IMG/VR virus record: IMGVR_UViG_3300028394_002659
DNA: 64,000 bases
Reading direction: 5' to 3' (one strand)
Source: a virus
Shown here piece after piece: positions 30,392 to 52,194 of the stretch. Numbering within the stretch: the first letter of the stretch is position 1; every line of letters starts with the position of its first letter. The translations under genes were made by a program, and so were the position numbers. A model generated the notes under the pieces. The model worked only from the letters and a program-made list of their open reading frames with translations. It made no database searches and was not told the DNA's origin.

Positions 30392-30420
30392 ATTATAGCA
30401 AATCGGTAATTATCGGTCAA
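30392..30420 (-). promoter_or_regulatory. sigma70 promoter, near-duplicate of 51829-51857
   Basis: TTGACC-17-TATAAT. Confidence 0.75.
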
Positions 30421-30650
30421 CCAATTGCTTTGACTAGTCCTGTGAGCCCGATTGCCAGTGCAACAATGTTTACCAGTAACTGTGGGCGATTTGCAACACG
30501 GATTGACCATGCCATGAACAGTATAGTTCCCAGGAAAAATGCAAGAATGTTCCAAGGGTAGGCCGCAGGGCCCACGGCGTTGAGACTGTGGCCTGCAATG
30601 ATAAACACTGCCCCGGTCCACTGTAGTATTTCGTTAATTTCTAATTTCAT
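30417..30650 (-). CDS. Small membrane protein (leaderless)
   Basis: Hydrophobic helices; ATG 6 nt after TATAAT. Confidence 0.7.
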   Translation of the reverse strand: MKLEINEILQWTGAVFIIAGHSLNAVGPAAYPWNILAFFLGTILFMAWSIRVANRPQLLVNIVALAIGLTGLVKAIG

Positions 30651-38421: not shown

Positions 38422-38520
38422 TCGGTTTTTTTTGTGTACAAAAACACAAGCCATCCCCGAGGCCGCCCATTTGCAGTTTTGAGTGATACCGGCTCGCGTT
38501 GCCTTGCACTTTGATAACGA

Positions 38521-38568
38521 TCATTGAACGTTATTGTGAATCCATTGCCAATACTCTTCTGTTGTCAT
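38521..38568 (-). CDS. 15-aa micro-ORF MTTEEYWQWIHNNVQ
   Basis: Strong SD AAGGAG 7 nt upstream. Confidence 0.45.
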   Translation of the reverse strand: MTTEEYWQWIHNNVQ

Positions 38569-38585
38569 TCTAGTTCTCCTTAAAA

Positions 38586-38620
38586 ACAAAAAACCCTGGA
38601 GTTTTTAGTTCCAGGGTCTT
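38586..38620 (-). terminator. Intrinsic terminator of putative attenuator 1
   Basis: ACCCTGGA-9nt-TCCAGGGT followed by TTTTTGTTTTT. Confidence 0.85.
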
Positions 38621-38646
38621 TGAATTAGATACGATTGCGTACTACG

Positions 38647-38757
38647 TTAAGACCCTGTGTCTCCTAGAATGATTGCTGTTGCGCGACCATAGGCATGTGA
38701 CCAGGCAGATGTCTGACTGAACATATTCTTGGGCGACAAACAGAGTTTCGTTTTCAT
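38647..38757 (-). CDS. Putative leader peptide 1 (36 aa, leaderless)
   Basis: MKTKLCLSPKNMFSQTSAWSHAYGRATAIILGDTGS; ATG 7 nt after TATAAT. Confidence 0.6.
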   Translation of the reverse strand: MKTKLCLSPKNMFSQTSAWSHAYGRATAIILGDTGS

Positions 38758-38764
38758 AGTATCA

Positions 38765-38793
38765 ATTATAGTTTATTTACCTTTGTGCGTCAA
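38765..38793 (-). promoter_or_regulatory. sigma70 promoter of leader 1
   Basis: TTGACG-17-TATAAT, with TAAATA in the spacer. Confidence 0.85.
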
Positions 38794-39965: not shown

Positions 39966-39981
39966 TTGTGTAGCGTATGAT

Positions 39982-40055
39982 TGGATGCGGGGGACAGATT
40001 CGAACTGCCGATGCACCTGGCTTATGAGACCGGTGTGGTGACCGCCCTCCCCGCG
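39982..40055 (-). tRNA. Atypical initiator-like tRNA(CAT)
   Basis: CGCGGGG/CCCCGCA with C1:A72 mismatch; loop CTCATAA; reduced D arm; CCA. Confidence 0.75.
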
Positions 40056-40065
40056 GTATATTTAA

Positions 40066-40369
40066 TGCTCTGCGTCCCCCGGCGGTAATTATAGTGTATC
40101 AGAAATTTCGTCAAGTTGCCCCAACTAGTCTATTCATCACTTACACCCTCCACCCGCTTCCCGACAGGGACCGTTCTCGTATTGCTAACGCCGGTTAGGT
40201 TGGACCGCTGATTGCTCAGTGAAACTTTGCTGTTTCAGAACCACCCGTGTGTGTCATCACACTTCTCATCGTCTGGGTCAGACTATCCAGTGACGCTGGA
40301 ACGTAGGGGAGAGGCCACGGTTGCAGGATCTAGTGCTCCGAAGAGGAAGTGTCCAGGCGGTGTGGCCTC
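40066..40369 (-). ncRNA. Unassigned ~300-nt structured RNA
   Basis: GC-rich, no credible ORF, many hairpins, three GCAA tetraloops on the minus strand. Confidence 0.55.
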
Positions 40370-40374
40370 AAACT

Positions 40375-40450
40375 TGGCGGTCTTAGGGGGTAACGATCCC
40401 CACTCTTACGGCGTGACAAGCCGTCGTGCGTCCATGAACACTTTAAGACC
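40375..40450 (-). tRNA. tRNA-Asp(GTC)
   Basis: Loop TTGTCAC; atypical T-loop ATCGTTA; CCA. Confidence 0.92.
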
Positions 40451-40453
40451 AAA

Positions 40454-40606
40454 TTTTTATAGTCAAGCACCGAGAATGCCAATTTAGGAGTCCGGTGCTT
40501 CCGTTCCAAAGCCGATGCAGTTATATCAGGATCAGTCGCCGGCCGCTGTGACCCGAATAGTGTATGCGTCCATACACGATACCTTATCGATGCTTGACTA
40601 TAAAAA
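40454..40606 (-). ncRNA. Unassigned structured RNA, element C
   Basis: 20-bp closing stem TTTTTATAGTCAAGCATCGA/TCGGTGCTTGACTATAAAAA. Confidence 0.55.
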
Positions 40607-40609
40607 CAA

Positions 40610-40685
40610 TGGTACTCCGTGGGGGAATCGAACCCCTCCTTACCCGCGTGAAAGGCGAGTGTCCTAACCGATAGACGAACGGAGC
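40610..40685 (-). tRNA. tRNA-Glu(TTC)
   Basis: Loop CTTTCAC; CCA. Confidence 0.95.
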
Positions 40686-40954
40686 ATGTAGTTTTACATT
40701 GAGGAACCATTGTGGATCTCGTTCTGCTTGGTTTGCGAGGCCAAGTCACCACGGTCATTACTGCCAGACGATCCGCCGCTTTTCTGGATCTACTTTTTAC
40801 AGTAGAGAGCCGACTTCATGACTGATAGCAAGTGGACACCCGCCGGTGTCAATTCACTTCTACCAATGCCTCTAACGGGTCTGGTAACCTCTTTGTATAT
40901 TTTAATGATCTGTTGCAAGTAGTCTCGATCGACTTTGTTGCTTTGTTAAGTTCT

Positions 40955-40986: not shown

Positions 40987-41020
40987 CAAAAAAGAAAACC
41001 CTCCGAAGCGGAGGGTCTTT
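40987..41020 (-). terminator. Intrinsic terminator of putative attenuator 2
   Basis: ACCCTCCG-CTT-CGGAGGGT followed by TTTCTTTTTT. Confidence 0.85.
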
Positions 41021-41038
41021 GTTAGTAGTACTTTTGTA

Positions 41039-41116
41039 TTACAGACAAAGCCCCCAATGGCAATCCCACTCATGTTCTGAGCGAAGGGTTGTGATGATTG
41101 CAGTTGTTTGTTTCAT
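41039..41116 (-). CDS. Putative leader peptide 2 (25 aa, leaderless)
   Basis: MKQTTAIITTLRSEHEWDCHWGLCL; ATG 6 nt after TATAAT. Confidence 0.55.
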   Translation of the reverse strand: MKQTTAIITTLRSEHEWDCHWGLCL

Positions 41117-41122
41117 AAGTGT

Positions 41123-41151
41123 ATTATATATGACAAGTGAATAAAAGTCAA
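41123..41151 (-). promoter_or_regulatory. sigma70 promoter of leader 2
   Basis: TTGACT-17-TATAAT. Confidence 0.85.
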
Positions 41152-41312
41152 GGCTTTTTGGCTCGGTTGCAAGCAGGATCTCGACAAGCCGTAATTCGTT
41201 TGCGATCACAGTCTGGGCAGTCTTTGATTCTGATCCACATGGTGGGCATGAATCTTACAACCTCATTTTTGCCTGGTTTATCCCAACTGTCACATTTGAT
41301 AGCATGTTGCAT
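41148..41312 (-). CDS. Small Cys-rich protein
   Basis: SD AAGGAG before MQHAIKC; CPDC..C....C. Confidence 0.55.
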   Translation of the reverse strand: MQHAIKCDSWDKPGKNEVVRFMPTMWIRIKDCPDCDRKRITACRDPACNRAKKP

Positions 41313-51846: not shown

Positions 51847-52194
51847 TTATTGGTCAACCGCTTTTGTACGCACATCTGTGTTGAGAGCAGGTGTATACTT
51901 TCGTATTAGTTCACGCTCTAGTGTGTGTGCCTGGGTCTTGCCACGTACAATGTCAACAATCGCAAAGTTCACAGCCGACTCACCAGCGGCACGAATTGCT
52001 TCGTACAGGCGCCAAGATTTGTCTTCTGTGCGTGAGCGATAAATGTGCTTGTTGATGCGTGAGCGCAGGCTCATGGTGATTGTGCGTTGAGTTTTTGCTG
52101 TAACACCAATGTAGTACTCCAAACCAATTTGGATGAAGTAAACAATGTGTGTACGGTCCACTCGTTTTTTGCGTGATTGCTTTTTAAGTTCCAT
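51847..52194 (-). CDS. GIY-YIG-like nuclease domain protein (leaderless)
   Basis: HIVYFI..YYIGVT..R...H..E..LI..LN; ATG 6 nt after TATAAT. Confidence 0.65.

Follow-up and report, generated by a model that had tools for sequence, protein, structure and literature searches.

A candidate translation-sensing transcription attenuator on a leaderless mRNA upstream of phage tRNA genes

Results

A promoter, a leaderless ORF, and a terminator lie ahead of tRNA-Glu and tRNA-Asp

The stretch of DNA we analyzed, a 64,000-nt window, comes from the minus strand of an IMG/VR virus fragment (IMGVR_UViG_3300028394_002659) that is 148.9 kb long, with a completeness estimate of 43%. A fragment of this length and completeness points to a giant phage, in this case an uncultured one from freshwater. 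The phage carries 25 tRNA genes and a permuted tmRNA of betaproteobacterial type, and neighboring genes encode TctC/Bug-like and DctP-like binding proteins, TauD, and radical SAM enzymes. Among GenBank phages we found no close cultured relative; matches were confined to tRNA-sized segments.

At positions 40987–41151, on the minus strand of the window, lies an element that we refer to as unit 2 (Table 1). A first-pass annotation of this DNA had described a promoter, an ATG closely downstream of it, a 25-codon open reading frame (ORF), a pairing between the end of this ORF and the 5′ arm of a terminator, and the terminator itself, and each of these is present where it had been placed. The ATG begins 6 nt past the −10 box, its A being the seventh base, and no Shine-Dalgarno sequence precedes it. 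The described pairing, between the last ORF codons (segment A) and the strand shared with the terminator (segment B), consists of 6 bp, one G·A mismatch or bulged A, and a further 4–5 G:C or G·U pairs.

Table 1. Features of unit 2, its downstream genes, and the sister element unit 1
Feature	Position in window	Strand	Description
Promoter P1	41123–41151	−	sigma70-type, score 11/12; −35 TTGACT (41151–41146), 17-nt spacer, −10 TATAAT (41128–41123)
Leaderless ORF	41039–41116	−	25 codons + TAA; ATG 41116–41114, TAA 41041–41039
Hairpin 1	41059–41101	−	inside ORF; outer helix 6 bp, inner helix 7 bp; in MFE fold and RNAalifold consensus
Segment A	41045–41055	−	antiterminator 5′ strand; last ORF codons
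Small inner hairpin	41025–41042	−	within the antiterminator loop, holds the stop codon; MFE fold and pair counts
Segment B	41011–41022	−	common to antiterminator (with A) and terminator (with C)
Intrinsic terminator	41019–40995, U tract to 40987 (feature entry 40987–41016)	−	8-bp G+C-rich stem, 3-nt loop
Promoter P2	40955–40983	−	TAGACC-17-TACAAT, extended −10 (upstream TG); score 9/12; conserved in all copies
Structured RNA	40686–40954	−	~270 nt, between P2 and tRNA-Glu; downstream cargo of unit 2; compensatory changes in its hairpins distinguish the window, L002, and L004
tRNA-Glu, spacer RNA, tRNA-Asp	40375–40685	−	downstream cargo of unit 2; tRNA-Glu 40685–40610, tRNA-Asp 40450–40375
Unit 1	38585–38793	−	sister element, same design; 36-codon leaderless ORF

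The first-pass annotation had cautioned that a separate promoter beyond the terminator might leave attenuation only a modulating role. This caution was well placed: P2 directly follows the terminator and is conserved, and therefore a switch at unit 2 could only add to basal output, with expression of the downstream cargo being independent of read-through. In relatives that lack unit 2 directly upstream, the −35 box of P2 reads TTGACC.

The RNA genes served by P2 have several unusual neighbors. No Rfam model matched the ~270-nt structured RNA before tRNA-Glu at either the gathering or a relaxed threshold. It occupies one of three long, conserved spacers around tRNA-Glu, tRNA-Asp, and an initiator-like tRNA (40686–40954, 40451–40609, and 40051–40374, minus strand). 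Because hairpins within these spacers show compensatory changes and are swapped between relatives, we regard all three as structured RNAs, and Rfam has no match for any of them. The tRNA-like gene at 39980–40052 (minus strand) has a CAT anticodon loop, a C1xA72-type acceptor end, and a consensus promoter of its own. Its D arm and anticodon stem look irregular, and neither ARAGORN nor the Rfam tRNA model calls it.

Upstream, a gene for a 54-aa Cys-rich protein, possibly a zinc ribbon, occupies 41148–41312 (minus strand), and its stop codon overlaps the −35 box of P1. The protein has 17 homologous clusters, and in relatives the site after this gene holds a promoter driving unrelated genes, several of which are leaderless.

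Within the 149-kb fragment, a consensus promoter followed within 350 nt by a perfect-stem terminator occurs only in unit 2 and in unit 1, and both head tRNA blocks. A search of unit 2 against Rfam 15, including T-box and amino-acid leader models, returned nothing at gathering threshold; sub-threshold matches were driven by the terminator only (Phe_leader, 21 bits against a threshold of 55; rnk leader, 20 against 55).

A strong promoter, a short RNA, and a strong terminator ahead of co-oriented genes also describe the late-gene cassette of phage lambda, PR′-6S RNA-tR′, in which read-through requires the Q protein bound at the promoter. Unit 2 might thus be a constitutive terminator that a processive antitermination factor, whether Q-like or a put/nut-type RNA, overrides for temporal control; its constitutive-looking promoter, short transcript, and terminator would suit such a device. 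However, the 149-kb fragment (~43% of the genome) contains no match to PF06530 or PF03589 and no Q homologue was found there, and the promoter spacer, where a Q-binding element would be expected, is unconserved among copies. The lambda cassette also lacks an ORF-linked competing helix, and this explanation leaves both that helix and the ORF geometry described below unaccounted for. We consider it highly improbable.

Unit 2 belongs to a family of elements heading RNA-gene blocks

We searched for relatives through three anchors, namely a 393-aa neighbor, the conserved core of the downstream RNA, and the upstream 54-aa gene, and these searches led to approximately 30 loci on freshwater viral and metagenome contigs. 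Scans of viral contigs with DNA patterns from unit 2 returned the same three contigs only, and the RNA-core and 54-aa-gene anchors added further copies. In total, we compared seven copies of unit 2: that in the window and those at loci L002, L004, L011, L015, L017, and L018. All seven are followed, in the same order, by P2, the ~270-nt structured RNA, and tRNA-Glu. The P1 hexamers are constant throughout and the P1 spacer is variable; the ORF is open in every copy, including the frame-shifted one of L015.

The sequence upstream of unit 2 varies. The 54-aa gene stands there in the window, L004, and L011, is deleted in L002, and is replaced by a tmRNA in L015 and by a different gene in L017 and L018. 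Conversely, the block of P2, structured RNA, and tRNA-Glu also occurs without unit 2, following a unit-1-like element in L012 and L014 and tRNA genes in L013 and L016. Given the variable upstream context and the existence of blocks that lack it, we take unit 2 to be a mobile module that heads RNA-gene blocks. Permuted tmRNA genes lie immediately upstream of a unit in some relatives (L015, 11345–11811; L028, 2052–2447), and their tag peptides vary by clade, one being of 10 residues and another of 26.

These comparisons bear on whether the terminator mainly ends the upstream operon, comprising a 232-aa gene, the TctC-like gene, and the 54-aa gene, with P1 and the ORF arising as by-products of a promoter module located behind the 54-aa gene. 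The terminator of unit 2 is indeed the first after these three genes, and relatives have, at the corresponding site behind the 54-aa gene, a promoter for quite different genes. Yet L002 and L015 keep the whole unit with no 54-aa gene before it, the unit follows a different gene in L017 and L018, and the antiterminator is conserved, all of which make this a very unlikely account of the element.

The first-pass annotation had also proposed that unit 2 repeats the design of unit 1 and that this recurrence supports function. Both units do share the arrangement of promoter, short ORF, antiterminator, and terminator, and a wider comparison extends it: a regular-expression scan of all loci for the terminator family yielded 20 distinct units, and that of L018 brings the number in these related phages to 21, in four or five subfamilies that have diverged from one another. 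A sigma70-like promoter and an ATG 6–10 nt past the −10 box accompany each terminator of the family; Shine-Dalgarno sequences precede none of the 21. Without exception, the units stand shortly before tRNA and noncoding RNA genes and share their orientation. As relatives, the units compared are not independent samples. Two features noted as common to both leaders, an ATG AAA start and the residues TAII, are real in units 1 and 2, but TAII is lost in the wider family.

In unit 1, indels within the ORF are of 3 and 6 nt and those just outside it are of 1 nt. Among the promoter-like sites listed for the window, none falls in the interval from the unit 1 terminator to tRNA-Trp. Right after this terminator (38520–38567, minus strand) is a 15-codon mini-ORF with a strong Shine-Dalgarno sequence and two Trp codons, which is kept in L002 and L012 with synonymous changes and one stop-to-stop change. 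Since it precedes a tRNA-Glu block in L012, this mini-ORF is not tied to tRNA-Trp.

The −35/−10 spacers of several unit promoters (L017, 3868–3900; L018, 3868–3900; L026; L028) contain a T4 late-promoter word, TATAAATA, which is absent from the unit 2 promoter of the window. A transcript starting from TATAAATA would be non-leaderless and should go untranslated, and so should read through the terminator; such starts would make a temporal switch possible.

The terminator is predicted to compete with an alternative helix of similar stability

We compared the folding of the predicted transcript with that of shuffled sequences. The fold of the 132-nt transcript has a z-score of −3.65, better than all 200 of 200 shuffles. 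Hairpin 1, the terminator, and the base of hairpin 2 all appear in an RNAalifold consensus built from the seven copies. Pair counts over six copies found 91% of cells paired, versus 37–44% with slid partners, and four pairs changed on both sides; for hairpin 1, 94–95% of cells are paired and two pairs are changed on both sides. The terminator itself carries one compensatory change, C-G to G-C, in L015 and L017.

A helix between segments A and B that competes for the 5′ arm of the terminator is present in 20 of 20 scanned units and forms a perfect 10–11 bp duplex in L015 and L017. By constrained folding, moving from the terminator to the antiterminator state costs +2.1 kcal/mol in the window; shuffling the upstream part raised this to 9.7 ± 2.4 kcal/mol, with 0–1 of 150 shuffles as low as observed (1 of 150 for the window). 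The two states differ by −4.2 to +4.4 kcal/mol across all 20 units (L015, −3.6; L017, −1.9).

Segment A changes with its partner between subfamilies, with CAGGGU opposite ACCCUG in some units and UAGGGU opposite ACCCUA in others, and an A-to-G change within segment B of L018 still pairs with U in both of its partners. The invariant GGG:CCC extension of the antiterminator provides no covariation of its own. Points that count against an attenuator are the internal G·A mismatch of the window antiterminator, which leaves it less stable than the terminator state by the amount given above, and L002, where two of three substitutions in or next to the antiterminator weaken it.

Unit 2 lacks a helix equivalent to the 1:2 anti-antiterminator of trp-type leaders. 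A candidate helix of this kind, in which the CCC stretch of the hairpin 1 loop would pair with segment A or C, is lost in L011, and we rejected it. Hairpin 1 itself may act as a pause hairpin.

The folding data would also suit a stand-alone small RNA gene, in which a ~125-nt RNA with a single-stranded 5′ seed, two hairpins, and a terminator with its U tail acts in trans, the ORF being incidental and the alternative pairing only a part of the fold. Unit 2 has a promoter and a terminator of its own and a new promoter directly after, pair counts back the three-hairpin layout, even the diverged L015 copy matches base for base over the first 24 nt, and RNAs derived from attenuators can act in trans, as rnTrpL does (PMC6614838). 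A small RNA, however, has no need for a competitor nearly isoenergetic with its terminator, and complementary stretches in the rest of the phage fragment did not exceed 13 nt, leaving candidate trans targets there at noise level. The placement of the ORF argues further against it: an AUG always stands at the predicted start, and the ORF end tracks segment A in 20 of 20 scanned units, at lengths of 25–49 codons and through a frame-shifting indel. The ORF of unit 2 thus appears to be selected, contrary to what would hold for a small RNA gene, and we regard a dedicated trans-acting RNA as unlikely. The ~125-nt RNA released by an attenuator may nonetheless serve a further function in trans.

The ORF is kept open and its sequence is free to change

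Across 20 measured units, the ORF has 25–49 codons, and the encoded peptides differ among subfamilies. In each of the 20, the frame 0 stop lies in the interval from 1 nt short of the 3′ end of segment A to 18 nt past it and never reaches segment B; in frame 2, most units meet a stop sooner. Shuffled sequences place an ORF end there with a probability of 0.05–0.13 per representative, and Fisher combination over nine representatives gives 6 × 10⁻⁴, a value that overstates significance in that the units are related. Thus the geometry by which a ribosome on the leader would mask segment A is found in all 20 units and the ORF is kept through indels, its translation being a prediction.

Comparison of individual copies illustrates how the frame is maintained. 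Relative to the window, L015 carries indels of +4, +5, and −1 nt (net +8), which place the 3′ part in another frame; the ORF is nevertheless open and ends 4 nt further on, within the same loop, with an unrelated C-terminal half. Between the window and L017, changes at codon positions 1, 2, and 3 number 6, 8, and 8, and with no third-position excess we conclude from these alignments that the unit 2 peptide is not under purifying selection. Conserved residues of the peptide coincide with RNA helices: in L018, a W-to-R change is accompanied by a change on the opposite strand, and in hairpin 1 the outer helix thereby grows to 8 bp.

We weighed these observations against the possibility that unit 2 is a leaderless micro-protein gene whose product is the 25-residue peptide and whose terminator merely ends the gene. 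The ORF is found in all copies, a block of 13 residues near the C terminus is similar in six of the seven, and the phage does have leaderless protein genes. The even spread of changes over codon positions, the unrelated C-terminal half in L015, the coincidence of conserved residues with helices, including the paired W-to-R change of L018, and the retention of the design rather than the peptide in the wider family all speak against it, and we consider it quite unlikely. The peptide is conserved no further than the RNA helices require and is probably not the product of the locus; a regulatory leader ORF, kept open with its sequence free to vary, fits the pattern.

Leaderless expression itself appears to be normal in these phages, because ordinary protein genes share the −10-to-ATG spacing of unit 2. 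A gene for a 115-aa GIY-YIG-like protein (~51850–52194, minus strand) has a consensus sigma70 promoter with its ATG 6 nt past the −10 box, is leaderless, and shows a clear coding signature in comparison with L015 (13 synonymous and 3 non-synonymous differences). Relatives hold leaderless genes of 80 and 48 aa. The window also encodes a 77-aa membrane protein (~30420–30650, minus strand) from a leaderless gene with the same kind of promoter and spacing.

The Glu and Asp codons are poorly placed for sensing

The leader encodes E-H-E-W-D, which had been suggested as a sensor matched to the downstream tRNA-Glu and tRNA-Asp genes. This suggestion finds no support: the codons in question constitute the 3′ arm of hairpin 1. 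Of the leader codons, two encode Glu, not next to each other, and one encodes Asp; all three fall within the conserved helix. No run of identical codons occurs. Because these codons lie in a conserved RNA helix, sensing of Glu or Asp is unsupported; they also sit at the edge of, or past, the useful stalling window. We rejected such sensing on two further grounds, namely that a ribosome stalled at the Asp codon would partly cover the nearby antiterminator strand, and that L012 and L014 place a different, unit-1-like leader before the same block of promoter, structured RNA, and tRNA-Glu. Were a particular codon class to be sensed, codons 4–10, rich in Thr and Ile, would be better placed than Glu or Asp. 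This stretch is also simply A- and C-rich, which favors sensing of translation in general.

Discussion

We propose, with a confidence somewhat above even, that unit 2 is a ribosome-mediated, translation-sensing transcription attenuator acting on a leaderless mRNA, a reading based on comparative sequence analysis. Host sigma70 RNA polymerase would start at or beside the A of the ATG, as the promoter spacing suggests, and 70S ribosomes would load at the 5′-terminal AUG and translate the 25 codons, as the comparative evidence suggests. The sequence, with the folding energies computed from it, indicates that segment B, the 5′ arm of the terminator, is able to pair with segment A as well. A prompt ribosome, with the stop codon in its A site, would cover segment A and leave B free to form the B:C terminator, ending the P1 transcript at approximately +125. 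With no ribosome, or with one stalled within approximately the first 16 codons, A and B would pair once B emerges, the terminator would not form, and transcription would read through. The strong output of P1 would then add to that of the weaker P2, raising production of the structured RNA, tRNA-Glu, the spacer RNA, and tRNA-Asp. In transcripts arriving from upstream, the AUG would be internal and without a Shine-Dalgarno sequence, and these should also tend to read through. More transcription thus probably enters the structured RNA, tRNA-Glu, and tRNA-Asp genes when ribosomes lag. Because read-through would follow either ribosome absence or an early stall, the device would report general translation performance, not the supply of one amino acid.

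The leader-peptide transcription attenuators of enterobacterial amino-acid operons (trpL, hisL, thrL, pheL, and leuL) provide the closest template for this mechanism. Like them, unit 2 has a promoter-proximal short ORF, an intrinsic terminator, an upstream competing strand that a ribosome can mask, and a stop codon just before the terminator. Unlike them, its mRNA is leaderless, with no Shine-Dalgarno sequence and no regulatory codon run, and in place of biosynthetic enzymes its cargo comprises phage tRNA and noncoding RNA genes, with a second promoter after the terminator. Without a 1:2 anti-antiterminator helix, an untranslated transcript of unit 2 should therefore read through, in contrast to those of trpL-type systems.

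Attenuators built on upstream ORFs (uORFs) are also known to sense ribosome stalling or translation stress, as in Bacillus subtilis vmlR (PMC9226507), the mycobacterial whiB7 uORF (bioRxiv 10.1101/2023.06.02.543512), and the Escherichia coli topAI uORF (PMC12121999). In these, as proposed for unit 2, a lagging or stalled ribosome in a short uORF favors an antiterminator and turns on downstream genes, and the peptide is loosely constrained. They differ from unit 2 in controlling cellular resistance or stress proteins, some of them through Rho or translation attenuation, and none of them is reported for tRNA genes or in phage. Leader peptides in Actinobacteria offer another parallel: small leader peptides upstream of the trpE, leuA, ilvB, and aroF operons of Corynebacterium glutamicum are thought to attenuate transcription in organisms that use leaderless mRNAs widely (PMC3890552). 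Unlike that of unit 2, those leaders regulate biosynthetic operons and contain runs of codons specific to an amino acid.

The tRNA genes of phages are currently viewed as a means of offsetting codon mismatch and of resisting host defenses that target tRNAs (PMC10264068, PMC11555353). Little is known of how their expression is controlled, and in a search of the literature we found no description of attenuator control ahead of phage tRNA genes. The unit 2 element is small, modular, and testable with ordinary reporter constructs. If our interpretation is correct, leader-peptide attenuation would extend to leaderless mRNAs in phage, with RNA genes as cargo, and decoding performance would feed back directly on tRNA supply. 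As a tentative extension, which we hold to be possible and less than probable, the phage might run a feedback loop in which leaderless test ORFs gauge prompt decoding. On failure, caused for example by tRNA depletion at the hands of host anticodon nucleases or other defenses, the attenuators would open and a promoter of consensus strength would swamp the cell with phage tRNAs and the structured RNAs that accompany them.
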